From NCBI RefSeq assembly GCF_000372725.1, contig NW_005202176.1, positions 229,152 through 293,151 of the forward strand: a DNA stretch of 64,000 nt. The letters are read 5' to 3'. This stretch comes from Emiliania huxleyi CCMP1516 (lineage: Eukaryota). Shown here piece after piece: positions 10,076 through 50,321 of this stretch. The first letter of the stretch is position 1. Every line of letters starts with the position of its first letter. The notes beneath the pieces are model-generated. The model ran no database searches and was not told the DNA's origin. It was given only the letters and a program-made list of their open reading frames with translations. Position numbers and translations under genes: made by a program.

Positions 10076-10544
10076 CCGTCAAAGCAGGCGGCATCGATTT
10101 CGCGCGAACGCAGCGTTGCCAGGTGACTCTCCCAGCGATTATGCTCGAGGCGGAAGGCAATGTCATCGAGAGGCCGCGGCCGCTCCCGCGGCTGCAGCCG
10201 CACCGGCTGCCTAGCCCGCTAGCCGGCTGGCGGCCGCAGGCCGCCCATGAATGCGACGACGGCCGCAATTGCCGCCCTCCTCGCCCAGCGCATTGCTTAG
10301 TGGTGCGCTCGCCTCCCTCCTGCGCGACGCTCATTCGAACGCGTTCTTGTCTGTCTCGGCGCGCGCGCAGCGCGCGAAAGAGGTGAGGTGTGAAGAGGGG
10401 GGTCGTGTCCGGTGTGAAGGGTAACCCACGGAAGGTATCAACTAGGGGCCCAATGCGGATTCAAGAGGGTATCAGAGTATAGCCTTAGGGTATGATTCGA
10501 TGATACCATACCAAGCTGAAGTACCGAATCCAGCAGCCCAAACT

Positions 10545-14109: not shown

Positions 14110-14897
14110 CGGCACCCGCGCTCGTAAGAGGTGGCTGGCGCCCTGAGGCGGCATTTGGTGGCGTGGGGAGTGCGGAACGCTACTGGCGGCGTGACAGGGG
14201 GCCTCTCTCGGCTGAGTGTGCCGCCCATCGGCACGCGGGTGCGCAGACGACATCGCGACTCTGCCCGCTCGCTCGACCCTTTTGCCGCTAGAGGGCGCCG
14301 GCCGCGTGTAAGAGGTGGCTGGCGCCCTGAGGCGGCATTTGGTGGCGTGGGGAGTGCGGAACGCTACTGGCGGCGTGACAGGGCCTCTCTCAGCGGAGTG
14401 TGCCGCCCATCGGCACGCGGGTGCGCAGACATCGCGCGACTCTGCCCGCTCGCTCGACCCTTTTGCCGCTAGAGGGCGCCGGCCGCGTGTAAGAGGTGGC
14501 TGGCGCCCTGAGGCGGCATTTGGTGGCGTGGGGAGTGCGGAACGCTACTGGCGGCGTGACAGGGCCTCTCTCAGCGGAGTGTGCCGCCCATCGGCACGCG
14601 GGTGCGCAGACATCGCGCGACTCTGCCCGCTCGCTCGACCCTTTTGCCGCTAGAGGGCGCCGGCCGCGTGTAAGAGGTGGCTGGCGCCCTGAGGCGGCAT
14701 TTGGTGGCGTGGGGAGTGCGGAACGCTACCGGCGGCGTGACAGGGCCTCTCTCGGTTGCGTGTGCCGCCCATCGGCACGCGGGTGCGCGGGTGCGCAGAC
14801 ATCGCGACTCTCCCGCTCGCTTGACCCTTTTGCCGCGAGAGGGCGCCGGCCGGGTGTAAGAGGTGGCTGGCACCCTGAGGCGGCATTTGGTGGGGTC
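14110..14897. repeat. ~181-bp tandem satellite, ~4.3 copies
   Basis: GTAAGAGGTGGCTGGCGCCCTGAGGCGGCATTTGG recurs at ~14124, 14308, 14489, 14670, 14856. Confidence 0.95.
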
Positions 14898-14984
14898 GGC
14901 GTGCGGGGCTGAGTCTTACTCGTCGGCGCTGGGGCCAGATTCCAGCGCAGAACTCTGCAACGCTGGCATATAGACCCAACAAGA

Positions 14985-15257
14985 CTAACCCTAACCCTAA
15001 CTAACCCTAACCCTAGCCCTAGCCCTAACACCCTAACCCTAACACCCTAACCCTAACCCTAGGTCAGCGTACGGGGCTGAGTCTTACTCGTCGGCGCTGG
15101 GGCCAGACCCCAGCGCAGAACCCTGCAACGCTGGCATATACAGACACAACAAGACTAATTTTAACCCTAACCCTAACCCTAACCCTAACCCTAACCCTAA
15201 CCCTAACCCGAACCCGAACCCGAACCCGAACCCGAACCCGAACCCGAACCCGAACCC
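14985..15257. repeat. Interstitial telomeric repeats (CCCTAA)n with CCCGAA variants, two blocks
   Basis: Arrays at ~14985-15061 and ~15162-15257, each preceded by the same ~90-bp unit. Confidence 0.93.
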
Positions 15258-15782
15258 GACCGGACCTGTGGACCGGACCCCTAACTCCACACCGCAAATT
15301 TGAAAGATCTTGATGAAAATCAGGGGCCCGACCGCAAATTTCTCCAAAATTTTCGCAGGCGCTCCGCGCCTGCAGATTTTGATTTTGAAAGAAATTAAGT
15401 AAAATTGCCTATTAAATTGGGGGCTGGGCCAAGCGCTCTCTGCGCGCTCTCTAGAGTACCCCTGCCGCGCCTCGCCGCCGCCTCGGCCTGCGAGTGCGAC
15501 GCGCGGACGGTGTAAACTGTATTATCACTTATCAGTCACCTTTGCCACCGTCGCGCAACCATACGCTTTAACCCTTTATCCCCCTCATCCGCCCCCGCGG
15601 ATCCGGAATTGCGACACGCCGACGGGTGGCATAAGGTGACTGATAGTGGTACACACCGTCGCAGCCTCTGGCTCACAACTCGATCAATACAGAATAGCAA
15701 AACACACACACCACAAACCTGAACGGGCACACACCAGCGTCTGCCCCACGGACGACGGAGATACCGCGCCGGCAACCACGCG

Positions 15783-27700: not shown

Positions 27701-30700
27701 ATCGAGACGGACGGCGCGGGGAGGTCCTGGGTGCGCGTCTCCGAGCCGCAGTCGCGGACCTCGACGCCCGTGTGCTGCCCGCCCGCGTTGGCCAGAATGA
27801 CGTTCCCGAACTTGCCGCCCGTGCCCTCGCGGAGGCGCATGATGGCGTTCGAGTCTCGTGCGGAGCGGGTGCCGCCGCCGATGATGGTCATCGAGTAGAA
27901 GGCGGGGTGCGAGCGGGGCTGCGAGTTGAGGTTGCCGCCCGTCTTCGAGTCGATCTCGGTGCCGTGGTTGCCGTCGACGCCGACCATGGCGAAGAGGAAC
28001 TGGCCGCTGCCCTGGTACCCCTCGTCGACGTCGAACGCGTCGTCGCCCACAAACAGGGCCGAGAGCCACTTGACGTTGACGGTGCCGCCGAAGAACTCGA
28101 AGCCGTCGTCCAGGTTGAGGGCGACCTCGCAGTGCTCGACGGTCGTGCCCGAGCCGACGCCGCCAAAGGTGATGCCGTTGATCTCATTGTCGGCGCCGAT
28201 GATGGCGCCGCCGTGCCACACGCGCACGTACTTGAGCGAGCCCGAGCTGTCGCCCGGGTCGGACCCGCCGTACGGCCTGCCCGAGATGCCCTCGATGAAG
28301 TTGGAGGCGTAGCTGCCGGCGGAGGTGGGCGCGCGGCCGAGCAGGACGAGGCCGCCCCACTTGCCGCGCTCGCCGAGGTTGGTGAGGCCGGGGTTGGCGG
28401 TGTCTGTCTGGGCCTGCTCCGAGGAGGCAAGCGCCGCCTCCGAGAGGACGGTGGTCATGGTGATCGGCCGGACCGCCGTGCCCTCGGCAATCAGCCTGCC
28501 GCCCTGCTCGACGACGATGGCCGGGGCGACATCGCCTGTGGGGGAGCGCGAGGAGGCGGGAGGAGGTCAGCTCCATCGAGCGGCCAATCCAACGGGGCGG
28601 GGGGGGAGGGGAGGGGCGTGTCGGCCCACCTGGAGCCTGGCCGGTCGGCATCGCGTAGATCGTGGTGCCGGGCGGGATGGTGAGCGAGGCCGAGATGAAG
28701 AGCTGCGACGTGAGGAGGTACGACGTGTCGGCCGAGAGGGTGGTCGCGCTGTCGACGTCGCCGCCGAGGCGCGCGATGGTCTGCCCGTCAGCTTGCAGCT
28801 GCGCGAAGGGGGAGGGGGCGATGCCGGCGCAGGTGGAGCCGGCCATCTTGCCAGCGCAGGCGAGCCACGAGTACTCGCTCAGCCAGTTGTCCGACGGGCT
28901 CGCGAAGGCGCCCTTGCACGCGACGCCCTCGTAGAAGGGGTCGGTGGACGAGTCGATTGCCCCACTGCACATCTCCGAGCCTGCCGTGGGCAGAGGGCTG
29001 AAGGAGCTGCCGAGGCAGGTGTAGTCGAGGCAGGTGGCCGAGACGCCCGCGAAGCCCGGGTCGGCGAGGCGGGCGGCGAAGCTGGCGCTCGAGCAGGTCT
29101 TCGCGCCCGAGCCGTAGCTGAAGGGCGTGCTGGCGCCGTAGATGACGTTGTTTGGCGAGAAGAAGAGGAAGTCGGGGAACTGCTCGGGCAGCAGCGTGAT
29201 GCCGCGGCTCTCGCTGCCGCAGTCGTCGTTCCTGACGCCGATGCCCGATCCGTACGCGAGGACGACGTTGCCGAAGCTGCCGCCCGTGCCCTCGCGGAGG
29301 CGCATGAGGCCGTCCGCGTTGGCGCCCGAGGCGGCCGATCCGCCGCCGAGGATGGTCATCGAGTAGAAGGCGGGGTGCGAGCGGGGCTGCGAGTTGAGGT
29401 TGCCGCCCGTCTTGGAGTCCATCTCGGTGCCGTGGTTGCCGTCCTCGCCGGTCATGGCGAAGAGGAACTGGCCCTTGCCCTGGTACCCCTCGTCCGAGTC
29501 GAAGGCGTCATCGCCCACGAAGAGGACCGAGAGCCACTTGACGTTGACGGTGCCGCCGAAGAACTCGAAGCCGTCGTCCAGGTTGAAGGCGACCTCACAG
29601 TGCTCGACGGTCGTGCCCGAGCCGACGCCGCCAAAGGTGATGCCGTTGATCTCATTGTCGGCGCCGATGGCGGCGCCGCCGTGCCACACGCGCACGTACT
29701 TGAGCGAGCCCGAGCTGTCGGCCGGGTCGGACCCGCCGTACGGCCTGCCCGAGATGCCCTCGATGAAGTTGGAGGCGTAGCTGCCGGCGGAGGTGGGCGC
29801 GCGGCCGAGCAGGATGAGGCCGCCCCACTTGCCGCGGGTCTCCAGCACGGTGTCCACCACGCTGGCGCCGGTGTCCGTCACGACCGTCGAGTCGTCCGTC
29901 TCCTCCGGGTTGAAGGCGGTGAAGGTGATCGGGTCGGCCGCCGTGCCCTCGGCCATCAGCCTGCCGCCCTGCTCGACGACGAGCGCGGGCGCCTCGGAGG
30001 CGGGGCTGCCGACCGGCATGGCGTAGATCGTGGTGCCCCGCTCGATGGTGAGCGTGACGCCGTCCAGGACGAAGACCTGGCACGACATGATGTACGTCGT
30101 CGACGCGACGAGGGACGTGTCCGAGCTGAGGTCGCCGCAGAGGTACTCGAAGCGGCCCGAGGGGCCGTCCTGCGCCTCCTCGCCGCACTCCAAGGCGCTC
30201 GTCGCGAGGCGGTCCTGCTCGGCGAGGTACGACCAGTCCTCGAGCCACAGGTTGCCGGCGCCAAAGGCACCCTTGTACGAGACGGGCGCGAAGAAGGACG
30301 ACGGCGGGTCGTCGACGCCCGTCCAGCCAGAGCCGCCGCAGGTGGGGCGCGGGTCGAGACGGCCGGAGCCGCCGCCGCCGCAGCCGTCCTCGAAGAAGCA
30401 GCCGTAGATGCCCGGGTCGGCGTACACTGCCTGCCACCCCTCGTCGGGGCAGCCCCTGTCGAAGGCGAAGGGCGGGTTGGCGCCGGCCACGACGTTGTTC
30501 TTGGAGAAGAAGAGGTAGCCCGAGTCTGGGGTGCCGACCTGGCCGATCGAGACGGACGGCGCGGGGAGGTCCTGGGTGCGCGTCTCCGAGCCGCAGTCGC
30601 GGACCTCGACGCCCGTGTGCTGCCCGCCCGCGTTGGCCAGAATGACGTTCCCGAACTTGCCGCCCGTGCCCTCGCGGAGGCGCATGATGGCGTTCGAGTC

Positions 30701-33062
30701 TCGTGCGGAGCGGGTGCCGCCGCCGATGATGGTCATCGAGTAGAAGGCGGGGTGCGAGCGGGGCTGCGAGTTGAGGTTGCCGCCCGTCTTCGAGTCGATC
30801 TCGGTGCCGTGGTTGCCGTCGACGCCGACCATGGCGAAGAGGAACTGGCCGCTGCCCTGGTAGCCCTCGTCGACGTCGAACGCGTCGTCGCCCACAAACA
30901 GCGCCGAGAGCCACTTGACGTTGACGGTGCCGCCGAAGAACTCGAAGCCGTCGTCGAGGTTGAGGGCGACCTCGCAGTGCTCGACGGTCGTGCCCGAGCC
31001 GACGCCGCCAAAGGTGATGCCGTTGATCTCATTGTCGGCGCCGATGATGGCGCCGCCGTGCCACACGCGCACGTACTTGAGCGAGCCCGAGCTGTCGCCC
31101 GGGTCGGACCCGCCGTACGGCCTGCCCGAGATGCCCTCGATGAAGTTGGAGGCGTAGCTGCCGGCGGAGGTGGGCGCGCGGCCGAGCAGGACGAGGCCGC
31201 CCCACTTGCCGCGCTCGCCGAGGTTGGTGAGGCCGGGGTTGGCGGTGTCTGTCTGGGCCTGCTCCGAGGAGGCAAGCGCCGCCTCCGAGAGGACGGTGGT
31301 CATGGTGATCGGCCGGACCGCCGTGCCCTCGGCAATCAGCCTGCCGCCCTGCTCGACGACGATGGCCGGGGCGACATCGCCTGTGGGGGAGCGCGAGGAG
31401 GCGGGAGGAGGTCAGCTCCATCGAGCGGCCAATCCAACGGGGCGGGGGGGGAGGGGAGGGGCGTGTTGGCCCACCTGGAGCCTGGCCGGTCGGCATCGCG
31501 TAGATCGTGGTGCCGGGCGGGATGGTGAGCGAGGCCGAGATGAAGAGCTGCGACGTGAGGAGGTACGACGTGTCGGCCGAGAGGGTGGTCGCGCTGTCGA
31601 CGTCGCCGCCGAGGCGCGCGATGGTCTGCCCGTCAGCTTGCAGCTGCGCGAAGGGGGAGGGGGCGATGCCGGCGCAGGTGGAGCCGGCCATCTTGCCAGC
31701 GCAGGCGAGCCACGAGTACTCGCTCAGCCAGTTGTCCGACGGGCTCGCGAAGGCGCCCTTGCACGCGACGCCCTCGTAGAAGGGGTCGGTGGACGAGTCG
31801 ATTGCCCCACTGCACATCTCCGAGCTTGCCGTGGGCAGCGGGCTGAAGGAGCTGCCGAGGCAGGTGTAGTCGAGGCAGGTGGCCGAGACGCCCGCGAAGC
31901 CCGGGTCGGCGAGGCGGGCGGCGAAGCCGGCGCTCGAGCAGGTCTTCGCGCCCGAGCCGTAGCTGAAGGGCGTGCTGGCGCCGTAGATGACGTTGTTTGG
32001 GGAGAAGAAGAGGAAGTCGGGGAACTGCTCGGGCAGCAGCGTGATGCCGCGGCTCTCGCTGCCGCAGTCGTCGTTCCTGACGCCGATGCCCGATCCGTAC
32101 GCGAGGACGACGTTGCCGAAGCTGCCGCCCGTGCCCTCGCGGAGGCGCATGAGGCCGTCCGCGTTGGCGCCCGAGGCGGCCGATCCGCCGCCGAGGATGG
32201 TCATCGAGTAGAAGGCGGGGTGCGAGCGGGGCTGCGAGTTGAGGTTGCCGCCCGTCTTGGAGTCCATCTCGGTGCCGTGGTTGCCGTCCTCGCCGGTCAT
32301 GGCGAAGAGGAACTGGCCCTTGCCCTGGTACCCCTCGTCCGAGTCGAAGGCGTCATCGCCCACGAAGAGGACCGAGAGCCACTTGACGTTGACGGTGCCG
32401 CCGAAGAACTCGAAGCCGTCGTCCAGGTTGAAGGCGACCTCACAGTGCTCGACGGTCGTGCCCGAGCCGACGCCGCCAAAGGTGATGCCGTTGATCTCAT
32501 TGTCGGCGCCGATGGCGGCGCCGCCGTGCCACACGCGCACGTACTTGAGCGAGCCCGAGCTGTCGGCCGGGTCGGACCCGCCGTACGGCCTGCCCGAGAT
32601 GCCCTCGATGAAGTTGGAGGCGTAGCTGCCGGCGGAGGTGGGCGCGCGGCCGAGCAGGATGAGGCCGCCCCACTTGCCGCGGGTCTCCAGCACGGTGTCC
32701 ACCACGCTGGCGCCGGTGTCCGTCACGACCGTCGAGTCGTCCGTCTCCTCCGGGTTGAAGGCGGTGAAGGTGATCGGGTCGGCCGCCGTGCCCTCGGCCA
32801 TCAGCCTGCCGCCCTGCTCGACGACGAGCGCGGGCGCCTCGGAGGCGGGGCTGCCGACCGGCATGGCGTAGATCGTGGTGCCCCGCTCGATGGTGAGCGT
32901 GACGCCGTCCAGGACGAAGACCTGGCACGACATGATGTACGTCGTCGACGCGACGAGGGACGTGTCCGAGCTGAGGTCGCCGCAGAGGTACTTGAACTCG
33001 TGCTCGCCCGATCCAACAACGCTGGTGGCGAGGCTCAACGCGGCCAGCGCGCGGAGCAGCAT
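24742..33062 (-). CDS. Giant secreted protein with six tandem bacterial-type parallel beta-helix (pectin-lyase-like) domains, (AB)x3
   Basis: Signal peptide MLLRALAALSLATSVVG; repeated GKWGGLILLG..DSSGSLKYVRVWHGG..NEINGITFGGVGSGT..DDGFEFFGGTVN..GDDAFDxDEGY; ~2,840-bp near-identical units, each with the same ~95-106-bp intron. Confidence 0.88.
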
Positions 33063-36510: not shown

Positions 36511-36793
36511 CCTGCACCACGCTGCCCGGCGTCTCTCACTTTCCGGGACAGCCCCGCCCTTGTGAGGCAGGAAAGTGGTGGCTACTATGTATGTAGAAAG
36601 ATGAACAACAGTCAGGCTCGGACTGGACACCAACGCGGTATGGCTACTCCGCGCACCTGAATTCTTTTTGGTAGGCTCGGCCTCGCAGCCGCTCGGTCGC
36701 GCGAGCCGTTCCGCTGTGCAACGCTCTCGATCTCTCGCGCTCTCGCTCTCGCTCTCGCTCTCTCTCTATTTACGCAGGCCACCCCTCGCGGCC

Positions 36794-38242
36794 ATGCCTC
36801 GGCCGATGTCGACCGCCGAATCGGCCTTCATCCTTCGAGCGCTCGGCGAGGGCCTCCGCGTCGACGGCCGGCGGCCGCGCGAGTCGCGGCCGCTGAGCGT
36901 GGCGTGCGGCCTGCGCGAGGGCTCCGTCGAGGTGCGGCTCGGCGAGACCAAGGTGATGGCTGCGGTCAGCGCGGAGCTGGTCGAGCCCTTTGCCGACCGG
37001 CCGACTGAGGGGCAGCTCCTCTTCTTCGTCGAGCTCTCGCCGATGGCCTCTCCGGCGTACGAGCCCGGCCGGCCGTCCGACTCCGCCGTCGAGCTCGTGC
37101 GGCTGCTCGAGCGGGCCTTCCGCAAGGCGCAGGCGGTGGACGTCGAGGCGCTCTGCATCGTCGCGGGCAAGCGCGTCTGGTCCATCCGCTGCGACGTGAC
37201 GCTCCTCGACGACCGCGGCAACGCCGCCGACGCGGCGTGCACCGCCGCGCTCGGCGCGCTGCTCCACTTTCGGCTCCCGGCGGTGAGCATCGTCGGCAGC
37301 GGGTCCGAGGCGGCGGTGAAGGTGCTCCCTCCCGAGCAGGCCGAGCCCACGAAGCTCGTCTTTCATCACATGCCTGTCTCGACCACGCTCGGCCTCTTCC
37401 GGCCGGCGGGAGGGGGCGGCGGCGGCGGCGGCGGCGGCGGGAGCGGCGGCGGCGGGGGCGGCTCCGCCGCCGTGCTGGCTGTCGACCCGACGGACCGCGA
37501 GGAGCTCGTCGAGGAGGGGCGGCTCGTGGTAGTGACAAACCAGTACGACGAGCTCTGCGCGCTGCACAAGCTCGGGGGGCTACCCGCGCACCAGGCGGGG
37601 GCGGGCTGGGCGGCGGGCGGCGGGCGCGCGGGTGCGCGGGACACGTCCGGGACGCGTCCGCCCCACGCGCCGTAGGAGACCGTCTCCGAGGCCGTGCGGC
37701 TCGCCGCGGCGCTGGCTCCGTCGCGGCTGTCTGCGGTGCAGGCGGCGATGGCGAGGCACGCGGAGGAGATGGCGGCGCGCGCTGTCGTGCTCGCCAAGAC
37801 GGGGCGGCTGCCGCAGAGGCAGGCGGCGGGCGGCGCGACCACCGTCGAGGCTGGCGCGGGACCCGCCGCCGCCGCCCCGCCCGCTGCGGGCGAGGGCGAG
37901 GGTGGCACCGGCGGCACGGGCGAGGAGGCGGCCGCCCCGCCCGCCGCGGCGGACGTCGAGATGGCGGACGGCGGTGCGGCGGCGGGAGAGGAGGAGGTGG
38001 AGGAGAGCAGCGCGGCAGCGGCGGCGGCGGCGGCGGCGGCGGAGGGAGCGTTGGGGGACAGCGACGAGGACGAGGCCGCGACCGCGACGTTAGTCTCGCC
38101 CTTTGCGGCGGGCGGGACCGCCGCGGCGGAGGCCGGGGGCGGAGCAGGGCGGGGGACGGGGGCGGTGAGCAAAGGCGCCGCCGCGCCGCCAGCGAAGAAG
38201 CGGAAGACTGGCAAGGCCGCCAAGAAGAAGGGCCGGTCCTGA
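36794..38242 (+). CDS. RRP45: Exosome complex component RRP45/EXOSC9
   Basis: GLRVDGRRPRESR..VRLGETKV..PFADRPTEG..ELSPMA..VDVEALCIVAGKRVWSIRCDV..DDRGN..HHMP..VDPTDREE; intron ~37594-37675; basic NLS tail. Confidence 0.93.
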
Positions 38243-39614
38243 GACGTAAGAGAGCAGCTCCCGCGCTCGGGGCGTCCGTGAAGGGAGAGGCGAGAGCGTG
38301 TGTGGCAGGGAGAGGAGGTACCGGGGGTGGGGACATGCTGCCAACGTGGAATACACGTGCAAACCAGCGCCTACGCATGGTGTGTGATGTGAGCAGTGCT
38401 CAAACTTTACCGGTATGGGAGTTTTTGGCTAATCAAACCCAAGGCCTGCACTACCGTATCCGTAATCAAAAACCCGAAAAAGTGGCTAGAGTGGGGTACG
38501 CGCTCGCGGGATACCAGTTCGAGTTGCCTCAACGGATCGAAATCAAAGCGAGTCGGAGCATCTGAATTTCCCCCCTTCCGGGTTGTTGCACAGTATATGG
38601 GACACGATGTCTCAAATATGAGGGGTTTTGACTCTCCTACCGGCTCGCTGAGGGCGAGGGCGGGGGTGGCGCCGGCGGCACGGGCGACGTATCGGCTCGC
38701 GAGGGTGGGGTGTGCGAGTACGAGACCGATACGTCGCAGTTCTCTTGCGTAGGCGGTTAGTCGTGCACTAACCCTGAGGATACCCTTCGGAGTCGCTCCT
38801 CATCCGAGGGTGCCTAACCATGAATACAAGGCGGTTTACGACACCGGCGGGGTGGATGACGGCCATAATCCCCGAGGGCTCCGAGGCGTTTGGGCACTTC
38901 GTGCTGATGGTTCCGGCTTTAGCCCCGGCGGCGCCGCCGGGCAAAACGAGGGCGACGTAGAAGAAGATGAACTGAACATCCTTCCGCCTGGCTGGGCGGT
39001 GTGCGATGAGCGGTGGTGGCGGCGCTCCAAGAGAGTGCGCGAGGAAGAGGGCTTGCCCCCCCCCGGCTTGCCCCCCCCCCCCCCCCCCCCCCGCCCGCCC
39101 GCCCGCCCGCAAGGCGCGAGATCCACCCTACCACCGTGACAAAACTCATCCCCAAAGTGACTCACTCAGCTGTTCCACCGCCGATCCGATGTACTTTTAG
39201 CTTAATGGGAGACAGGGGAGAGGGAGACGCGCTTTCTTGGCCCTTAGGGGCCCTACTCAGCGCAGTCTCTCTCCGATGCACCCATTTTTTGGAGACATTG
39301 ATTTTTTCTTCTTGGCCGGCGTAGCCGTAGGAAGGGCTTAGTGGCCTGCCATGTCACAGGAAGGGCTGTGGTTGCAGATTACCACCCATCACTTTGTTTT
39401 GGTATAGACTCGAGATGCTTGATTTCTTTTCTTGCTAAATTTTAAAGAAACTAACGCCGAGTTTCATCGCCCAGAAGGCCGACGGCCAAAGCTCGAGGTG
39501 TGGCTGGGCCGGTCAGTGGCGGTCAGATCGCCAGGTCGAGGGTGTGGCTGGTCAGTGGCGGTCAGATCTCGACCGCCGGGCAGAGTCGCCAGCCGCTCGC
39601 GTGCTCTTGAGGCG

Positions 39615-40941
39615 ATGCACCTGCTGTGCCACGCCCTGCTCGCGGCCGGCGCGGCCGCAAAACTGAATCTTCGCGCCGGCGGCGCCAGCTTTCCCGCCGC
39701 GATGTACCAAGACGTGAGCTTTGCCTACAGCTTCCGCAAGCCCGCGAGCGCATCGGCCGACATCTCATACCACTCAGTCGGCTCCTCGGCGGGCAAGCGA
39801 TGGATCAAGGACGGCACCCAGCGGTGCGAAGACGACGTGCGGCCGTGCGTCACGCTCGACTGGGCCGCCTCCGATTCCCTCCTCACCGAGAGCGACTACG
39901 CCGCTCAGCCGGACCTGCAGATGTTTCCGACTCTGGCCGGCGCCGTGGTGCCAATCTTCAACCTGCCGAACCACACCGAGGGCGAGGGGCAGGATTTGCT
40001 GCTGACGCCCACGCTGGTGAGCAAGATCTTCCGCGGCGCGGTCACGCGCTGGGACCATCCCGAGATTGTCTCAATCAACCCGCTCCTCGCCCTCCCCGCG
40101 GAACGGATCCTGCTCTGCGTGCGTGCGGACGGCAGCGGCACGACCGAGATCTTCAAGAAGGCCCTCTCCGCATTCGAGCAGGAGTTTAAGGAGCAGGTGG
40201 GCGCGGACAGCGGCACACGCTGGGGCCTGGCCAACGTGACGCGCCGCCGGCTCAACAGCGGCGTTGCTACCTATGTCGCCCACACGCCGTACTCGCTCGG
40301 CTATTCGGTACTCGCGGAGGCCGAGTCGGCGGGCCTCCCGTTCGCCGCGCTGCTCAAGGGAGATCACCGGGTGCGCGCGTCGCCGACCTCTGTCGCGTAC
40401 GCGCTCGCCGAGCTCGGCCTCGAGATCGGCAACGAGCGCGAGGTGCTGACTGCAGACGTCCACAACGCGCTCGGGCTGATGGCGTGGCCAATCTGCGGCT
40501 ACACCTACCTGGTCATGCGCACCAACCCGCTGCCGGCCGAGGTCCCCGGCTCGTCGCTGGAGACGCGGCGTGCGGTGGTCGACTTTTGGCGCTGGTTCTA
40601 CACGGACCCGCAGGGCGTCGTCGCACGGCTAGCCGCGAAGAATGGCTTTGCACCCCTCCCTCCTATTGTCTCGGAAAAGGTGCTGCCGTTCCTCCTCAAG
40701 AGCATCCGGTGGCAGGGCGTGCCGGTGGCCTTGCCGGAGCCCAAGCCGTCGCTGACGGTGGTTGGGCCGGTGTGGCTCTCGTCGGCGTTCGAGCAGCTTG
40801 GCATCATCTACGAGCAGGACCCGCACTCGAACGCGGAGACGAGCTACGCCGTGGTCAAGGACGGCAAGCAGGAGCTCTTCTGGCGCTGCAGCGCTCGAGC
40901 AGCGTCGGGGACGGCCTTGACAGCTTGGGGAGAGCTCGACT

Positions 40942-40982
<41 letters not shown>

Positions 40983-43900
40983 GCAGCGGCACCGTCGCCG
41001 CCACCCGCCATCGGGTCGGTGGTTGTGACGGCGGAGGCGTGGGAGGCGGTGGCGTCGGGGGACGAGGGCGTCGCGACTCTTCCGCTCGCCGCCGTCGCCA
41101 TCGGGGTTGCGTACACGCTCGTCCCGTGCCGGGCCAACCGCACCTGCGCCGACGGCGAGGGCGCCTCAGAGCCGCTCGTGCTCGACGCGTTTGCGATCGG
41201 CCGCCTCTGCTCGGGCGAGATCCGCACCTGGGACGACGACTACCTCGTCTCGCTCAACCCGTGGCTCGTCGGCGTGGGTACCGTCCCGATCGTGCTGCAG
41301 GCGGAGCCCTCGACGTCGGACACCATGGCCGCGCTGCGGGACAAGCTGCAGGCACTCGGGCAGCGGACGGAGCTCCTGACAGGATTTCTGAGTCACCATC
41401 GTCGGGACATGCTGCAGGCGCTCGGACAGCTGACGGAGCCGGACGGCGCCTTCTGCCCGGCGGCACACGTGCAGCCTTCGTCGGCGCGGGTGAGCTCCGC
41501 CGTCCTGCACGACGAGTACTCGCTCGGCATCCTCCCAGTCGGAGGCGCCGCGCCCGGAAGGCTGGGCCAGCCCGGCGACGTGCACGATGGAATGAATTGA
41601 TGAATCACTCGACATCTAGGCGCCGTGCCGCACGGTTGGGCCAGCCTGGCGACGTGCCCGCCGCCTAAGAGCGGAGAGTGGCGCTCTCTGATCTTTGACC
41701 CCGCCGCCGCAGCGGCTTGCCGCGCGCGCGCGATGCCGCCGGCAGTCGCGAACTTGCGCAGCTGCTCGCGGCCGCTGAGTGCCGACTCTGCGCGCCCCAC
41801 GGAGCCGTGCTATCCGCTCGCGGTCTTTGCGCTTCTGCTGGTCCCCACCGATTTCCGCGGCGACGAGTGCGCGGCGCTCGAGGCGGAGAGTGTGCCCAAG
41901 CAGCTCGCGCGCTACCTCGCGTGGCTGTACGGACTCGACACCGCCGACGACAGCAGCGGAGTGGCGCCGCTGCACCGCGCGCTCGCCCGCGAGTCGATGG
42001 CCTTCATGGGCCGCGAATGCGAGCTGGACGAGGCGCGGCGACGCTTCCGAGACACCACCGTCCACGATGTTGTCCCTGCTCACAATGCCTTCAGTACCAC
42101 ATCACCTCGTGCGCTGGAAGCAGCGGGCGGCATGCCCGCACCGCCACTACCCAACCCACGATGTCTCCTGGCCGGCCGCCTGCCACGCCGCAGGCGCACT
42201 TGGCCCACGAGCTGACTCGAGAGGCGCTGTACCAGCTCACGTGCGAGACATCGCCGAGAGATCAGCGAGACATCGCCGAGAGATCAGCGAGACATCGTCG
42301 AGAGATCGCCGAGAGATCGCCGAGCTGCCGAGCGACCTGCTGCCCCGCCGCACCGTTGGTGCCCTGCTTGCGCTCGTACCGCGCCGTTTTTTGCGGTCCT
42401 GCCACCATCCTCCACCAAAGGAGGCTCTCCATGCCCGCCTCTGCAGATGCGACGGCCGCTCGCTGCTCCGGCCCGACGACACGAGCGCCGAGGTTGCGAC
42501 GGGTTCGATCTTGCTGATCACGTTTAGCTCCGTGCTGGGCGCGCTGGCCACCGTCCTCCTCTTCAGCCTCGCCCTCTGCACGCGCCACCGCCGCAACATG
42601 AGTCGCCGCGCCGCCAGCCTACGCGCGTCTCGCGACCGGGCACACATGGACTTGCAGCTCGTCACCCACCGGATCAAGGCCGGGTTGCGCGTCTCCTTCG
42701 ACGCGGTGCCCAGCGCCGAGGCGCCGTCCCTCTCGATGCCGCCAGGCCCGCCGCCCGGCTAGATCTCGGCTAGCTCTCGGCGAGCTCTCGGTGGGATCTC
42801 GGCCGCATCTCGGCCGCATCTCGACCGCATCTGTTCTCGGCTGTATCTTGGCTGTATCTCGCCAGGCCCGCCTTCCGGCTCGTCTGGCTGCACGCTCGCC
42901 GACCGCGGGCACAGCGTCGGCGGCTTGGTGGCGGGATTGCGCCGCAAGACGCGCGTCGACAGCCTCCACGCGGAGGGCGCGATCTCGCTCCCCGAGATCC
43001 CGCTTGAGCTGCTGCAGCTAGTCGCCAGGGCGGTGCCTGTCGACGACGCGTTTGCGTTTGGCAGCGTCTGCACCCGCTTTCGGCGAGTCATGTGCCAGCG
43101 CGGCTCGCAGCACGCCCGCTTCCCGTGCGGTGTGCGGACGAGGCACGCGGCGGCGTGGGCGTCGGCGGCGCGCCTGGCGTGGGCACGGCAGTCAGGGTAC
43201 AAGTGGCGGGCCTCGGACGTCGCACTCTGCGCTGAGCAAGGCCGCTTCGAGGCGTCGCCGCCGTCCCTAGCCCGCCCCCTCCCGAGACCCCGCCCCCACT
43301 CACATACCCCTCCCGAGACCTTGTTTGTTCCCCCCACACCCACCCACCGCCACCAGCGCCATCATCGCCGCCACCATCGCCACCGCCACCGCCATCGCCA
43401 CCGCCATCGCCACCGCCGTCCGCACCAGGTGCTTCAGTGGGCGTGGGAGCAAGGCTGTCCGGCGGACGAGCGCACTTGCAGTGCGGCGGCGAGGGGTGGC
43501 CACCTCTCGGTGCTGCGATTTGCGCGGCAGCAGGGCTGCCCATGGGATTCGCGCACGTGCAGTGCTGCGGCGGCGGGAGGCAGGCTCGAGGTGCTGCAGT
43601 GGGCGCGGCAGCAGGGCTGCCCTTGGGACGCAGAGACGTGCAGCACGGCGGCCAGGGGTGGGCATCTGTCGGTGCTGGCTTGGGCGCGGCAGCAGGGCTG
43701 CCCTTGGGGTGCAGACACGTGCGCCGAGGCGGCGGCCGGAGGCAGGCTCGAGGTGCTGAAGTGGGTTTTGGAGCAGCGCTGCCCTTGGGACGAGCGCACT
43801 TGCAGTGCGGCGGCGAGGGGCGGCCACCTCTCGGTGCTGCAGTTTGCGCGGCAGCAGGGCTGCCGATGGGATGCGCGCACGTGCAGTGCTGCGGCGGCGG

Positions 43901-44274
43901 GAGGCAGGCTCGAGGTGCTGCAGTGGGCGCGGCAGCAGGGCTGCCCTTGGGACGCAGACACGTGCTCCGAGGCGGCGGCAGCAGGCAGGCTCGAGGTTCT
44001 CCAGTGGGCGAGGCAGCACGGGGCCCCTTGGAACGCGCTCGTGTGCATGATGGCCGCGGGAGGCGGCCACCTCTCGGTGTTGCGTTGGGCGCGCGACAAC
44101 GGATGCCACTGGACAGAGCTGACGTGCACCGCGGCCGCAGCCGGCGGGCACCTGCAGGCGCTCAAGTGGCTGCGCGAGAATGGCTGCCCGTGGGACAGGC
44201 GCGTGCCATTTCTCGACGAGCAGGCGTCTACGATCCTGTCCTTCCCTACACTGCCGCGCTTGCGGGCTGGTTGA
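39615..44274 (+). CDS. Single-pass receptor: signal peptide - PstS - degenerate PstS - TM - F-box-like - ~10 'GCPWD' ankyrin-like repeats
   Basis: GGASFP, GSSAG, WAASD, RADGSGTT, WPICGYTYL (PstS); second lobe GEIRTWDD..LNPWL; TM ~42508-42579; LPEIPLELLQLVARAV..VCTRFR; 27-aa repeats; frame-preserving introns 41545-41619 and 42746-42865. Confidence 0.8.
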
Positions 44275-44998
44275 ATGAGTGCGTGCCAGCGGTGCGGCAG
44301 AGATTGAGTTTGAGCGAATGCTGTATGCGCTTACGCACGGCGAGGGGCAAGGGCGCGGCGGGCGCGGAGGGGGGCGAGGGCGAGGAGGCGGCCGGAGAAG
44401 AGGAGGGGAGCCCGTTGGCGCGCACAACTAGACGACGGCCGCCAGAACGACATGTCGTCAGAGCCGTAGCTCCCGCGCCGACGCGCAGGTTCGTCTTCCC
44501 GACGGCGACCATCGCGCAGACTAGGCAGAGCACGGCCGACGATGAGGTAGATGAGGGGGGAGGGCTCCACCATGCACCACATGCACATGTACATGTGTCT
44601 AGTTCTCGGTCCCCTCCCGAGTCCCGAAAATGCCATTCCGATGCCGCCCTAGTGTCATTACCATTGTACACTTACTCTCTCTCTCTCACGTCTCTCTTGT
44701 ACATTTATCGGATATCGCGGCCCCGTAGTGCGTAGTAAAATGCGCAGAGCTAGAACTTCTCTTTTATCGTGCAGGGCGGGGACACATGTCCCTAAATCCC
44801 ATCTCGTCTCTGCAGAGACTGAGTTTGACCGTTTTATTATTTATTTATTTCTTTTTCGCTCCCGAAGAGTCCCGTACGGCGTACGGCTTTATCGATATGC
44901 GATATCGTGTCGTGTGCGCACTCGGTGAAATATGCGTGGGTCGTGCTAGGCTAATTACCTCCCTACGATACCTTACCTAAATCGCCGCCGCAGGTGCG

Positions 44999-47970
44999 TC
45001 ATGACGTTTCACGCGCCTCCGCCTCGGCCGCCGCCTCAGCCACCGCCTCCCGCAGTTGGGCCGCATGGTCGGCAGCGAGCCGCGCCCCGGTCTCCGTCGC
45101 AACACTCTCCGACGTGCCTTCTCCCGCCGTTGCGGACGAAGAAGACCTCCGCCGTACTGGATCGATGCCTAGCCTGCGCTCCCTCGAGCCGTGGGGACTA
45201 GACACGGCAGGCGTAGGAAACACGCAACGCTTGCCCAGCCGCGCGCACCGGAGGCAAGGCTCGTCCTCGCTGTAGTACTCGCATGCAGTCTTGGACCTAC
45301 GCGCGCCACGGGCGATTTGCGGAAGCTGTGGAAGCGATGCTTGGCCGCCCCTTCACGGGCGAAATGGTGGGGGGTGGCTGACGCGATGCAGCGTGGCATA
45401 TCTCTGCCCCCCCCCCCCCAAAACCCACGGGACTTGCAGCGCCTGTGGCACTCGGTACAAGCCCGCTTCCGCCGTCGCAGCGCGATGGCGCTGCCAGCGC
45501 TGCCAGCGCGACCCAAGCCGCCAACGCCACCTCCGCAGCCCGCGCCACCCGAGATGATGGCGCCGCCTGCGCCGCCCAAACCGCCTAAGCCGCCGCCCAA
45601 GCCACCGACCTCGCCGTCGTCCACCGGCACCGGCATCAACGCGCCACCCGCCACCGCTCCGCCCCGCGCAAACGCGCCCCCGAACGCGCCGCCGCACTCG
45701 CCACTTGGCTCGGCGAACGCGACCTCCTAAGAAGCTCACGACTCTCGCGGCGTGAGGTGTCTTCTCGGCAGATCGCCGCGCGACGAGCCGAGCACGTGAG
45801 ACGCCTCCGCCCACGCGAAGGCGTCCTCCCCACCCGCCGCCCCATCGGCCTCGGCCGTCCGGGCTGTTGTGCTCAGGCCGTCGCACTGATTCGGCTCGGC
45901 GGCCGGGGCGCCTCGGGGGGGGGGGGGGGGGCGGGGGCGTGTGGGTAGGGGGAGTGCGACCCGAAACAGAATTGAGTACATCTTATCATACCTTGGTGCG
46001 AGCTGCTGCTTTGCATGGCCGGCGGCGTGCAGCATCGTTTCCGCAGCAGCTTCCCAAAGAGTGACCTATACACTGGGGGAAGACGTGTGACCGCGGCTCT
46101 CCGCAGGGTGGACGTCGCCCTCTCCTCTCGCCCGACCGGTCGCCGCCGGTGGCGTTCGCGTCGACAAAGCGCGCCAAGACCGGCTCGATGCGGAAGCTGG
46201 CAGGGTCCAGCTCGGTCTCCTGCGAGATGAAGCATAGGCGGGGCGGAGGTAGTGCGGCGGGGGAGGTGGAGTGGGGCTTGGATCAAGCGATGAGGGAGGG
46301 CGTAGAGGTGGCTGTGAGACTGGCTGTGGAGGGGACGGCTGGCCGGTGAGGCTCTGCTCTCTCTGAGTGTGGGCGACGATGATCATGCCGATGGTGCGAG
46401 TGGATGCCATCTTAGGGTGCGGGGGTAGGAGGAGGGGAATGAAACCTGATGCGGCTATGCAAAGAGGCATCGGAAGGCGGTGGGCGCTAGTTGGGCGCGG
46501 CGTGCTCTCCTGGCTGCAGAGCGGGCACTTGTTGAGCCGGGCGCGCGAGAGGCAGCTGTAGCAGAAACGATGGGCGCAAGAGAGCACGACCTGTGCTCAC
46601 GGCGCAGTGGCTGTGGGCGCGCACCCTTGCTCCGCACCGGGGCGAGGGGCGCGGCGGGGAAGGATGAGGGGGGGGGGGGGGGGTAGAGGCGGGAGGGCGG
46701 CACGCCGGCAAACTCAGCTTGCCCATGCAACTACTACACTCCGGGCCCTGACACCACAGACACCGGGTGAGTGACGGCTGATCTTGGCGGATCGGAGCTG
46801 GGCGGCAGCTGCAATCCGCCGAGGACTCGACGGCAGTGGCTCCGACAGCAGCGCAGACGACCTGCTCACATCGCGACGGCCTTTGGTCCGGGGATGTGGT
46901 ATTCACGGTGCACCAGTCAGAGCGGACGACGCGCGTCCGCGGCGACGCCTTCGGCTTGCGCAAGGGAGGCGGCGAGGAGGCGCGACTGGCAGATGGAGAG
47001 CGAGCCTGTCCGCAGCAGAGCATGTGAGGCGAGGAGCGAGTGGCGCCGAGCCAGACGGCGGGGGAGGGCGATGTCCGATAAAGCTCATCACAGAGTCACC
47101 GATCAAGATTGGCGAGTGGCGGTCGTGCTTTTGCACGAGCTTTGTCGCGGCGAGCAGGTTGAGCAACGCGTAGGTGCGCAGCGCGTCCACCTCCTCGCAC
47201 AAGCGCACGAACGCGCCCACGGCCTCGAGCTTGTCCCTTGCCACCTGGCGGAGTGTTGAGCCGAGGTGGCGCGCAGCGGGACGGCGAATGTGGGGAATTG
47301 GGCGGGGCGCCCCGGCGGCGAGTGGCGGCGGCGGCGGCTGGCGGAGGGTGGGGATATCACGTGCGCTCTCGCTCGTTGTGGTGGCCCTCGCCCCCTGCAG
47401 CAGCGGCAGCAGCGTCCCCAGCGAGACAGTCCCAAACGCCTCGACCCGGCCGCACACCCACCGGCGCGGCTCGTGCAGCAGGGCGGTGAGCGCCTCCAGC
47501 CGGGTGCACAGCTCCGCCTCCATGCTCTTCATAAGGTTGTTCACCTGCGGGAGATATACACGTTTTGCCGTTTGTCGGGCTAGCTCCCAGAGGGAGAGAG
47601 GAGCTCATGCTTGTATTGAGGGCTAGAATCGCCGTACGCGAAGAGGCCGGACCTCTCAGACCCCTTGAGGCGTTGGATGCGTCTCGCACAGCACAAGGGG
47701 CATCGCGGCTCTCCTCGCTTTCGCCGCCTCTGTGGGATGGAACGCTGGAGCCTTGGGGCATAGAGGATAGCCGCACGCCTGGTTGATCGCCGAGAGCAGC
47801 TGTGTGAGGAAGATGCCCTCTATCGCCGAATGGCTGTCGCTGTCCGGATCCAACCGACGCAGCGTCTGCTTGAGCTGATCGTACGGTATGAGCTTGGTAG
47901 CGAGGCGTGGGTGGCTCGCGGCGGTCAGCTTGTCGCCATACAGCACGGGGGGGCGGTCAAAAGACACCAT
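44999..47970 (-). CDS. SPX - RING(C3HC4) - Zn(II)2Cys6 protein (multi-exon)
   Basis: IPYDQLKQ..LRTYALLNLLAATKLVQKHDR (SPX); CSSC..LSCAHRFCYSCL..CPLC (RING); KRACTECHR|SKTACEYYSEDEPCLRCARLGKRC joined across GC-AG intron 45297-45442. Confidence 0.8.
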
Positions 47971-48069
47971 TGGGCAGCGAGTCAACAGATAAAGGGCCGA
48001 AGGGCAGCTGGGGAGAGGGGAAACGCCGAAATTGACTGTTGACTCGCCGTCGGCGAGGGCACAGGCTAC

Positions 48070-48443
48070 GTGTGTGTGTGTGTGTGTGCGGCGGGCGGCT
48101 TGCTGCTCGCGGCGATGGCGAAAAACTCGTCTCGCCACACGCCAAGGGCTTATGCTCTGGCGAGACGTGAGGCGCATGCGCCCAGGAGGGGAGGGGGCAT
48201 GTGTAACGACACTGCTACTGTAGAGATGCCTTTCGGGGCCCAGAGATAAAACTTCTGTGATGCCATGCGTGACCTAGTAGTGTCCCCAGCTATGGGCGTG
48301 TCCACGTTGGAGCCAGGTGTGGTGTGGGCGCGAGAATAGCTCCGCCGTTCATGGAGGCAACCGATGCGAGTCGACTGGTGCGTGAGCTTTTTGTTTGTTT
48401 GGTGTGTGTCGTCGTGGTTTCGTATCAAGAATACTCACTCACA
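48070..48443 (+). mobile_element. Longer copy of the (GT)n-headed, (CTCA)n-tailed retroelement fragment
   Basis: CACAGGCTAC duplicated at 48060-69 and 48444-53; same 3' end as the 36448-36510 copy. Confidence 0.7.
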
Positions 48444-48604
48444 CACAGGCTACCTACAACTGTAGGTAGGCACGCGAGCGTGTGTGTGTGTGTGTGTACA
48501 CACACACACACACGCACGCGAGCACGTCCTGCCCGCTGCCCCGGGCAGGAGTGAACTTGCCATCATCAGAGAACTTTTATCTGTGTTCGTACACACTTAA
48601 TTAA

Positions 48605-48710
48605 CAAACCTGTCTGCACGTCGCGCGCGCGTGAACAGGGCTCCAGGCCCCAAATGTGAAATGACGTGTGAGTGTTAGAGTTGTTTGGTATTGCTAAAAA
48701 TCTCTCTCTC
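48605..48710 (+). mobile_element. Short retroelement end with (TC)n tail
   Basis: TTAATTAA on both sides (48597-604, 48711-18); 3' part shared with 22088-22150. Confidence 0.6.
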
Positions 48711-48953
48711 TTAATTAAAGCTACGGGAGGGAGGTGTTTCCTCTGTGAGTGATGTATAGATAGCTCTTACGAACGTACATACACACGAGAGAGAGAGAGA
48801 GATCCCCTTTCTCCCATTACACGAGAGAGAGAGAGAGAGAGATCCCCTTTCTCCATCAATTAGAATTCTTTTTTGGGGACAACAGCGTCTCGACAACAGC
48901 GTTTCCGTCGGGAAGACCTAAATGCCCGCCTTTAGGATCAACAACACACCACC

Positions 48954-50321
48954 ATGAAGCGCCGATCGATGTCCGCACACGCGCTGGCGGAGGTAGCCAC
49001 TGCGGTGGCGGGCGGCTCGCCTTCCTCCGGAGGCAGTCCTCGCGGCGGGAGCGGCAGCCGCTCGTCGCTCCGCCCTCGGCGAAGCAAGGAGAGGGAGGGC
49101 GAGACGGTCGAGGGGCCTCCGCCTGACTTCCGCTGCCCCGCGGCCCAGCCTCCGCCTAGCTTCCGCTGCCCCCTGTCCGGCGAGCTCATGCAGGACGCAG
49201 TCCGGCTGGGCGACCGCTCCTTCTCTTCGGCGAGTCTGCGAGGGCGCGGGATGTCAACTTGGAGGCCGCACACACTCCTCCCCAAAGCGGATCACGTGCT
49301 GCGCAGCCAGGTCCATGACTGGCTGTGCGAGCGGTACGCGTCGGTGGTCCTGCGCTTGCGCATGGTCTCGGCCGTCACGTCGGCTGCGCCCGAGGCGGCG
49401 GCGGCGGCGGCGGCGGCGGCGGCTGCGCTCGAGGCGCACGACGGCGCCGGCAAGGTGGGCATCGCCGTGGCGGGCGGCATTATACCGCTCGTCAAGCTCG
49501 TCAGTTGCGACGGCGATGCCACCCGCCGCGCCGCGGCGGCGGCGCTGGCGGCTCTGGCCTCCCACCCCGCCAACAAGAGGGAGATCGCGGCCGCCGGCGG
49601 CGTCCGCGCGCTTGTCGCGATGCTCTTGGCTGAGAGCCCCGAGGAGTCCAAGGCGGCCGCTTGCGAGGCGATCTGGCATCTGGCGACCGGCAGCGGAGAG
49701 AACAGGGCCCTGCTCGTGCAGGAGGGCGCACTCCCTCCCGTGGTTGCGCTCGTCTCCTCGCAGGTTGCGCAGAGCGCCGCCGTCCGAGTGCTGCGCCAAG
49801 TTGCTGTGGACGTCGAGCACGCGCGGCGCCTTGTCGACGCCGGCGTCATCCACCCGCTGCTGCAGCTCTTCATCGACGCCAGCCCGGCGCGGGTCGACGC
49901 GTCGGAGATCCTGTGGAGCCTCTGCATGGAGCCGACGAGCCGCGAAGCCGTCTCCGCCGCGGGAGGGGCTTCGCTTTGGTGGCTCTACCCCTCCGCCTTG
50001 CCGGGCCTCGCCGCCCGCGCCTACACGGCGCCGCCGGCGGGCCCGGCGCCGCCGCCGGCCGCCGCCAGCGACTGCGGCGACGACCCATGGGTGCCGGCCG
50101 CCGACGTGGCCTTCACCGACCAGGACTTGCTCTGCTTCCTGAGGGAGGAGGATGTGGAGGGGTCGCACGACTCCTGGCTCCAGCAGCTCGCGGGGCCCTT
50201 CTCCGGCTCTGCGCCACCCGCCGCTTCCTCCTGGTCCTCCTCCGGCTCGCAGGAGTCGCCCCCAAGCAGCCCTGTGTCGGATCCGTCGGCCAAAACCTCG
50301 AGTACCCCCCCCCCCCCATGA
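48954..50321 (+). CDS. U-box + Armadillo-repeat E3 ubiquitin ligase (PUB-like), intronless
   Basis: FRCPLSGELMQDAV..HVLRSQVHDW (U-box); IAVAGGIIPLVKLV, IAAAGGVRALVAML, LVQEGALPPVVALV (ARM). Confidence 0.85.
   Translation: MKRRSMSAHALAEVATAVAGGSPSSGGSPRGGSGSRSSLRPRRSKEREGETVEGPPPDFRCPAAQPPPSFRCPLSGELMQDAVRLGDRSFSSASLRGRGMSTWRPHTLLPKADHVLRSQVHDWLCERYASVVLRLRMVSAVTSAAPEAAAAAAAAAAALEAHDGAGKVGIAVAGGIIPLVKLVSCDGDATRRAAAAALAALASHPANKREIAAAGGVRALVAMLLAESPEESKAAACEAIWHLATGSGENRALLVQEGALPPVVALVSSQVAQSAAVRVLRQVAVDVEHARRLVDAGVIHPLLQLFIDASPARVDASEILWSLCMEPTSREAVSAAGGASLWWLYPSALPGLAARAYTAPPAGPAPPPAAASDCGDDPWVPAADVAFTDQDLLCFLREEDVEGSHDSWLQQLAGPFSGSAPPAASSWSSSGSQESPPSSPVSDPSAKTSSTPPPP

Follow-up and report, generated by a model that had tools for sequence, protein, structure and literature searches.

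Gene Model and Domain Content of the Locus

The window analyzed here is a 64,000-nucleotide stretch of Emiliania huxleyi CCMP1516 (contig NW_005202176.1, positions 229,152–293,151), and all coordinates below refer to it. On its minus strand, from 47970 to 44999, lies an intron-rich gene of the eukaryotic type (GC content ∼66%). The gene model comprises 10–12 exons and encodes about 500–527 amino acids with an SPX domain, a C3HC4 RING, and a Zn2Cys6 cluster. That the three domains form one protein at this locus is highly probable, and the same architecture is present in a family of haptophyte proteins, of which the window copy is a rapidly diverging member. The motifs quoted in a first-pass annotation made from the letters alone (YDQLK, the YALLN...KHDR helix, the C3HC4 RING, RRRKR, and a GAL4-type cluster) were all recovered in place on the minus strand.

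The exon chain was set by homology, and splicing in the E. huxleyi window was inferred rather than read from RNA. In its 12-exon form, the model runs from an ATG at 47970 to a stop at 44999 and is open over 525–527 codons. Exon 1 (47779–47970, minus strand, as for all features that follow) starts with the ATG and an 8-residue N-terminal extension relative to the homologues, followed by the first SPX helices with the YDQLK motif and the conserved Tyr and Lys of the phosphate-binding cluster (Y30 and K34). Exon 2 (47386–47544) encodes the middle helices of SPX; its 3′ end is uncertain, with a GC donor at 47385 or 47391. The SPX lysine helix (YALLN...KHDR) is found in exon 3 (47076–47244), where K152 and K156 are kept, Q155 (codon 47133–47131) replaces a conserved Lys, and R159 stands for another Lys. 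A predicted GA-AG intron (47075–47006) separates it from exon 4 (46935–47005), which completes SPX and adds the next helix, with the family-invariant FTHAQ motif altered. Exon 5 (46817–46861) connects SPX to the RING. The first half of the C3HC4 RING is encoded by exon 6 (46706–46747, first Cys codon 46738–46736), with Ser218 for the Ile of the family, and the second half by exon 7 (46510–46590), with Ser252-Gln253 for Lys-Lys; the intron that divides the RING (46705–46591) is of the GC-AG type.

Behind a further predicted GA-AG intron (46509–46220), exon 8/9 (45992–46219) contains a conserved post-RING helix and the start of a linker. It includes an in-frame stretch of 66 nucleotides (46131–46066) that may be spliced as an intron or retained, and it ends at a GT donor (45991) directly ahead of two stop codons. 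An optional linker exon (45805–45885) is not fixed by homology, and the frame stays open whether it is included or not. The Gly-rich linker exon (45443–45726) ends in RRRKR and the first two cluster cysteines (first Cys codon 45459–45457). A GC-AG intron of 146 nucleotides in phase 2 (45442–45297) then divides the Zn2Cys6 cluster, the remainder of which lies in the last exon (44999–45296) together with the retained recognition Lys431 and pre-Cys Pro (last Cys codon 45226–45224), a displaced basic patch, an Ala/Glu-rich tail, and the stop. The AT-rich 3′ flank (44650–44998) has two AATAAA-like words and is likely the 3′ untranslated and polyadenylation region.

We enumerated the donors and acceptors within 45 nucleotides of each modeled intron and scored them against the homologues. 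The modeled junction scored highest for introns 1, 3, 4, 6, 7, and 11; for introns 2, 5, 8, 9, and 10 (5 of 11 junctions), other junctions score equally or higher, and these are not uniquely fixed. Intron 1 falls at the same codon as the sole intron of a genomic homologue, locus L001. The first-pass annotation had proposed that removal of intron 45442–45297 completes the cluster, and its choice held up: of 177 candidates tried, 48 leave an open frame, and this intron ranks first among them (2551 versus 2502 for the runner-up), whereas its retention closes the frame. A wrong splice choice was thus rejected. Introns 3 and 7 need a GA donor (2551 versus 2524 and 2483, respectively, for the best non-GA option), and intron 5 has a possible third GA donor (46816) besides GC alternatives. 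Two, possibly three, GA-AG introns (donors at 47075, 46509, and possibly 46816) are thus predicted in one minus-strand gene, in which most other donors are GC and a single one is GT.

Before splicing, the domains are visible to Pfam only in part. SPX is matched at E 0.032 in the unspliced frame of exons 2–3, and zf-C3HC4_2 at E 5.7e-5 by the second half of the RING alone. The cluster had been described as invisible in the open reading frame (ORF) track. This applies to its complete spacing, which appears only after splicing; however, the unspliced last-exon ORF (44999–45352) already matches Zn_clus at E 0.001 (19.6 bits versus a gathering cut-off of 21). The spliced spacing is C-x2-C-x6-C-x8-C-x2-C-x6-C, and its central spacer of 8 fits the PF00172 definition C-x2-C-x6-C-x5-16-C-x2-C-x6-8-C. 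A profile built from 11 homologous clusters, with the window excluded, scores 47.3 bits (E 1.5e-13) on the spliced model, compared with 30.2 bits for the unspliced second half, 9.8 for the first half, and 9.8 for the best unrelated match in six frames of the window. A chance cysteine pattern was rejected on this basis. All eight zinc ligands of the RING and all six cluster cysteines are kept (14 of 14). The SPX identity of the window copy is supported by its nearest homologue cluster, which reaches 61.5 bits (PF03105 cut-off 27.8) and to which the window model is 56% identical.

Direct searches with window exons returned little. A word-index protein search with exons 2–3 confirmed none of 3441 candidates among longer proteins, a metagenome scan with exon 3 peptides confirmed none of 599 pattern matches, and PDB sequence searches with single exons gave chance matches only. 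Exons 2–3 retrieved SPX-named clusters from the ESM Atlas at 0.83–0.84, which we treat as a lead only.

A Haptophyte Family with SPX, RING, and Zn2Cys6 Domains

An exhaustive search with exons 2–3 returned 15 proteins. P0014, a transcriptome protein of 706 amino acids from Scyphosphaera apsteinii, combines SPX, RING, and Zn2Cys6 in one chain, and a search with its first 290 residues gave 23 proteins of 388–1236 amino acids. RING and Zn2Cys6 occur together in 11 of the 23, and the SPX lysine helix is also present in 8 of these 11. The other three are N-terminally truncated ORF calls, for one of which (P0198) a complete cluster mate exists. Among the remaining 12 proteins, SPX-RING is followed by an unrelated tail in four, fused to a NIF phosphatase in three, and joined to a Myb domain in one, from Palpitomonas. 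Two others are ORF calls that read into introns or are fragmentary, and the last two are a fungal VTC protein and an SPX-Na/Pi transporter. Fusions of SPX-RING-NIF phosphatase with a putative HAD phosphatase are represented by P0053, P0055, and P0056.

Named members of the family are E. huxleyi EMIHUDRAFT_422811 (XP_005756459.1; present in NCBI and MMETSP; hereafter 422811), Prymnesium parvum AB1Y20_010310, and the transcriptome proteins of Haptolina ericina and S. apsteinii. Chrysotila carterae has divergent SPX-RING records lacking the cluster (P0016, 371 amino acids, and P0009). A metagenome scan with the family alignment, covering 14 of 64 parts, yielded 80 loci, with L001 as the sole family member. 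L001 has a single intron, and the exon after it, 2124 nucleotides long, encodes the larger part of SPX as well as the RING, the cluster, and the C-terminal motif. Because L001 presents the domains in a single exon and the transcriptome records in a single chain, the three-domain chain is real at the family level, being neither a product of splice guessing nor a chance juxtaposition; the family architecture is near certain.

In the intact members, basic residues flank the cluster on both sides, a recognition Lys lies four residues past the second Cys, and a Pro precedes the fourth Cys. We take the role of this Lys to be that of Gal4 Lys18. A profile search also finds a C-terminal acidic-hydrophobic motif in the intact members, which may be an activation helix. 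The lysine helix of the phosphate-binding cluster is intact in the conserved members, and the RING Ile and a Lys at the RING linchpin position are invariant in 11 members other than the window copy.

The family is apparently an undescribed architecture made from known parts and conserved across several prymnesiophyte orders. We found no description of an SPX-RING-Zn2Cys6 fusion in print, although subscription papers and supplements could still mention one. New SPX fusions have been reported from the green and red lineages, with no zinc-cluster fusion in the available parts of that report (PMC8717665), and a survey listing 27 fungal-type factors in E. huxleyi does not contain "SPX" in its main text, the part available to us (PMC4827209).

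Structure Models

The model of E. huxleyi 422811 is confident for SPX (predicted local distance difference test (pLDDT) mostly 85–94) and intermediate for the cluster (72–79); the RING, at about 40, is not confident, the linkers have low confidence, and a terminal helix spans residues 579–588. Foldseek aligned this model with the SPX domains of Gde1, OsSPX1, XPR1, and Vtc4 (best E 1.4e-4), and the family profile matches SPX and RING structures by sequence. Complex prediction between the SPX-RING part and the cluster of 422811 scored 0.28 against a mark of 0.34.

The Gal4-like fold was assessed on the homologue L001 and not on the spliced protein of the window. Of the 24 Foldseek matches listed for the L001 cluster model (pLDDT 76), the first 20 are Zn2Cys6-type DNA-binding domains, including Leu3, Put3, Pho7, Hap1, Gal4, Ppr1, and AlcR. 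The top matches (Leu3, Put3, Pho7, and Gal4) have probabilities of 0.9–1.0 and E values of 0.02–0.5, and superposition with Gal4 gave a Z score of 4.6 and a root mean square deviation of 2.4 over 43 residues. In the 422811 model, no helix is present in the low-confidence stretch of residues 456–578, and no dimerization coiled coil is modeled after the cluster. Pfam scans of the homologues detected no fungal transcription factor domain (middle homology region).

Divergence of the Window Copy

The window copy aligns with 422811 almost without gaps over SPX-RING (148 of 265 aligned residues identical, 56%) and is its sister in the tree (support 100/99). The two branches differ strongly in length, with 0.80 for the window copy versus 0.083 for 422811 in a tree of 22 rows, and 0.87 versus 0.065 after removal of six long or partial rows. 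Relative-rate tests agree with all four outgroups (p 7e-7 to 1e-5). Of 64 columns that are invariant in 11 other members, 422811 keeps 63, whereas the window copy keeps 47. The 17 lost columns fall mainly in two helices, those of the SPX lysines and of FTHAQ, and at the Ile and linchpin positions of the RING. Given the 97% identity among the 422811-like sequences, the window gene would be a paralogue if the genome is that of Gephyrocapsa/Emiliania, and a fast-evolving orthologue otherwise.

The RING Ile, located between the first two Cys, is an E2 (ubiquitin-conjugating enzyme) contact, as in BRCA1 (I26). The linchpin of active RING ligases is an Arg, Lys, or Asn after the last RING Cys; its role is described in the available part of PMC9954413. 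With Ser218 for the invariant Ile and Ser252-Gln253 for Lys-Lys, the window RING lacks the usual residues at both positions. SPX residues were mapped by spacing to AtSPX1, for which the available text of PMC7810988 gives a phosphate-binding cluster (Y25/K29/K139) and a lysine surface cluster (K136/K140/K143). The phosphate-binding cluster of the window copy is incomplete, with Gln155 at the K139 position; the lysine surface cluster keeps K152 and K156 and has Arg159 at the K143 position. The first-pass annotation was right that the SPX lysines are partly altered (KxxQK), but the altered Lys belongs to the phosphate-binding cluster and not to the lysine surface cluster. In addition, the C-terminal acidic-hydrophobic motif was not found in six frames of the window by the profile that detects it in the intact members.

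Despite these changes, the window copy appears still constrained and does not behave like a dead gene, as judged from its sequence. Among 5000 neutral simulations to 44% divergence, 0.6% remained stop-free and none kept all 14 zinc ligands, with the caveat that the window junctions had been chosen among open frames. The GC content at third codon positions of the exons is 0.73–0.88, versus a GC content of 0.67 for introns. One ENA ORF, P0001 (96% identical), joins exon 2 and intron 2 (47532–47313) to sequence of intron 45442–45297 (about 45390–45353). Its exon 2 is identical to that of the window, and both differences lie in intron 2. Such a junction would be expected of an allele with a 1.9-kb deletion, or of a chimera created in assembly.

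Comparison with Known Systems

Plant NLA and NLA2 (Arabidopsis, rice, and Medicago) resemble the family in having an N-terminal SPX domain followed directly by a C3HC4 RING, an arrangement predicted to couple ubiquitination to the phosphate signal. Plant NLA stops close to the RING and targets PHT1 transporters for ubiquitination (PMC10748377, in the part available), whereas the haptophyte proteins are extended by a long low-complexity linker, a Zn2Cys6 cluster with basic patches, and a C-terminal acidic-hydrophobic helix. Plant NLA proteins were absent from the homologue matches, in searches not aimed at NLA orthology. A plain NLA orthologue was rejected as an identity for the gene, because a Zn2Cys6 cluster follows SPX-RING.

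In plant SPX1-PHR1, algal PSR1, and diatom SPX-PHR, an SPX receptor for inositol pyrophosphate likewise controls a DNA-binding factor, and SPX is a negative regulator in plants and a diatom, according to the available text of PMC7810988 and PMC8233357. In those systems the sensor and the Myb/coiled-coil factor are separate, whereas the family has both in one chain, uses Zn2Cys6, and places a ligase between them. The fungal factors Gal4, Leu3, Put3, Ppr1, and fission-yeast Pho7 have in common with the family the six-Cys binuclear fold, the recognition Lys, and a basic flank. Their cluster is N-terminal, in contrast to the internal to C-terminal cluster of the family, which has no middle-homology domain in Pfam scans, no coiled coil, and in most members a central spacer of 4. 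Pho7, itself of the Zn2Cys6 type, induces genes for phosphate acquisition (PMC6895273, available part); it matches the family in fold, and orthology is not claimed.

The nearest relative of the window copy, 422811, has the same three domains in the same order. It retains KIVKKHDK, the RING Ile, Lys-Lys, and the C-terminal motif, whereas the window copy keeps none of these. Palpitomonas bilix P0049 (UniRef A0A7S3D1F4) also joins an SPX-RING core to a DNA-binding domain, in this case a Myb (residues 745–793; Pfam E 3.3e-4, below cut-off) with a SHAQKYF-like word, in a single transcriptome record. This is presumably the Myb type found in PHR1 and PSR1. The occurrence of two different DNA-binding domains on the SPX-RING core suggests, at the level of sequence, that the design was selected twice.

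Proposed Function and Alternative Explanations

The explanation we favor, with about even confidence, is that the window gene is a fast-evolved member of a family acting as one-component phosphate-responsive factors, and that this copy keeps DNA binding with weakened sensing, ligase, and activation functions. In the family, the Zn2Cys6 cluster and its flanking basic patches would provide nuclear entry and binding to CGG-type sites, and the C-terminal acidic-hydrophobic helix would activate transcription. Under phosphate sufficiency, SPX occupied by inositol pyrophosphate may inactivate the factor, in the simplest case because the neighboring RING is then licensed to ubiquitinate the factor itself; under phosphate limitation, the factor would build up and induce genes for phosphate acquisition. 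Jobs that plants divide among SPX1, NLA-type ligases, and PHR1 would then be joined in one chain. The one-chain architecture had been proposed in the first-pass annotation and was borne out by the homologues, and its suggestion that sensing of phosphate, transcriptional control, and ubiquitination are combined in a single component may reasonably hold for the conserved members; it is weaker for the window copy. Because the SPX Lys, the RING Ile, and the linchpin are changed and the activation helix is gone, the window copy may be a signal-blind, ligase-poor, and non-activating DNA binder. It could occupy the same sites, or partner an intact factor, without responding to the signal and thereby serve as a competitor or repressor. 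It is a poor model for the function of the intact family.

Several points weigh against this explanation. The Zn_clus score is 14.3–18.8 bits in all 11 homologues, below the cut-off of 21, and in most homologues the central Cys spacer is 4, compared with 5–16 in the definition given in the available part of PMC4827209. No Foldseek match of the L001 cluster reaches E 0.001. A Lys linchpin, as in the family, gives attenuated activity in some ligases (PMC9954413, available part), and no link between phosphate and expression emerged for any family member; a phosphorus-induced haptophyte SPX orthogroup (OG_22072, with E. huxleyi R1EK05; PMC5513979, in the part available) could not be tied to the family. 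At the locus itself, the window SPX exons have no matching protein record except one ORF of 85 amino acids, two or three GA donors are required, and our searches turned up no report of such donors from haptophytes. Local alignment of the RING-cluster linker and of the tail with 6 homologues was no better than with shuffles (p 0.27 for the linker versus 422811), which leaves the linker exons unverified; in the 24 linker and tail tests, two global p values (0.04 and 0.005) were not relied on. Loss of function in the window copy is also uncertain, with Y30, K34, K152, K156, and a hydrophobic residue (Met) after the second RING Cys still in place. Finally, haptophytes also have a psr1-like Myb gene, as noted in the available text of bioRxiv 484824, and SPX-RING-Zn2Cys6 proteins need not be their main phosphate switch.

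The unalignable linker bears on whether the domains belong to one gene. The SPX-RING exons would end at stops near 45988 if the GT donor at 45991 were unused, in-frame ATGs at 46035, 45981, and 45636 could start a separate short gene for the cluster, and Chrysotila P0016 is an SPX-RING record lacking a cluster. We nevertheless consider two genes very unlikely. Linkage of SPX-RING and cluster in this genome is inferred because the domains, including a cluster of the family type, follow the order of the single-chain homologues, the gap between them is only ∼1 kb, an open spliced path exists through GT donor 45991, and the link shows no sign of a 3′ end: its GC content is 0.72 with no AATAAA-like word, unlike the 3′ flank 44650–44998 (GC content 0.48, two words). 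If the chain is accepted, its role could still be NLA-like, with phosphate transporters or further proteins as targets of SPX-RING ubiquitination and with protein or RNA binding, instead of promoter recognition, as the accessory role of the Cys6 cluster. NLA itself offers a precedent with membrane and nuclear pools (PMC10748377, available part), the spacer of 4 in most members lies below the textbook 5–16 (PMC4827209, available part), and the model has no dimerization helix after the cluster. This we hold to be improbable: family-wide conservation extends to the recognition Lys, the pre-Cys Pro, the basic flanks, and the C-terminal acidic-hydrophobic helix; the top fold matches are all DNA-binding clusters; and an SPX-RING-Myb fusion of independent origin suggests that selection favored DNA binding.

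Two further alternatives concern the window copy alone, and we regard each as unlikely. It might be a fully working sensor, ligase, and activator with changed ligand or E2 preference, and perhaps the sole orthologue in its species. Four of the six mapped SPX residues are identical and one is conservative, all 8 RING and 6 cluster ligands are kept under purifying selection, and paralogy to 422811 is not established; yet 17 of 64 family-invariant columns are lost, the C-terminal motif is absent, and the rate has increased ten-fold. At the other extreme, it might be a dispensable duplicate, once selected and now decaying or unexpressed, for which the missing long protein record, the weak GA donors, and P0001, with its resemblance to a 1.9-kb deletion allele or assembly chimera, could be cited. 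Such decay is difficult to reconcile with an open frame in all exons and 14 ligands kept at 44% divergence, a combination seen in 0 of 5000 neutral runs, or with the identical exon 2 of P0001, whose two differences both fall in intron 2.

If the favored explanation holds, namely a one-component phosphate-responsive family with a weakened copy in the window, the family would represent a eukaryotic one-component system for the inositol-pyrophosphate signal. Little is established about how Emiliania, Prymnesium, and other bloom-forming haptophytes perceive phosphate and induce their scavenging genes, and the psr1-like gene is no more than a candidate in the available text of bioRxiv 484824. SPX surveys, as far as their text was available, describe SPX fused to transporters, polyphosphate enzymes, or RING, or acting on a separate factor. 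A conserved chain of SPX, RING, and a DNA-binding domain provides a specific gene per species (422811 in E. huxleyi and AB1Y20_010310 in P. parvum). The family was missed because its cluster falls under the Pfam cut-off; this and the short central spacer also account for the database label "RING-type domain", 422811 being annotated as "hypothetical" or "RING-type domain-containing protein". The window copy would be a natural variant in which DNA binding is uncoupled from the residues for sensing, ligase activity, and activation. A broader proposal, which we put forward tentatively and consider rather doubtful, is that haptophyte phosphate control relies on a one-chain regulator in which the inositol-pyrophosphate receptor sets off the RING against the Zn2Cys6 factor of the same chain, destroying or disarming it, that Palpitomonas arrived independently at the same design with a PHR/PSR1-type Myb, and that coccolithophores tune the system with signal-blind duplicates. 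No P1BS word occurs in 44001–49500.

Neighboring Genes and Other Features of the Window

A PstS-like phosphate-binding protein with a signal-like N terminus is encoded at 39423–41600 on the plus strand (TIGR00975 E 1.4e-54; PDB PstS E 7e-33). Its proximity to the SPX gene, whose end is 3.4 kb away, may be coincidence; no synteny was detected between four window neighbors and the flanks of L001. Between the two genes, a convergent gene (42763–44274, plus strand) encodes ankyrin-like repeats of 27 amino acids. On the other side, an ARM-repeat gene (48954–50321, plus strand) is arranged head-to-head, 984 nucleotides from the SPX start; its N-terminal stretch looks U-box-like by eye, and Pfam reports only ARM.

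The minus strand at 24802–32996 encodes a long, secreted-looking repeat protein with no Pfam or NCBIfam match. It is built from a tandem unit of ∼2840 bp at 99% identity, with an internal sub-repeat of 729 bp at 88%, and may represent either a genuine repeat gene or an expansion introduced during assembly. A 181-bp tandem array (14124–15259) is followed by telomere-like CTAACC/AACCCG runs. Other genes in the window encode a light-harvesting protein (2614–3246), a RecQ-type helicase (10446–12115), a PI3/PI4-kinase (16004–17323), and the exosome subunit RRP45 (36605–37675).

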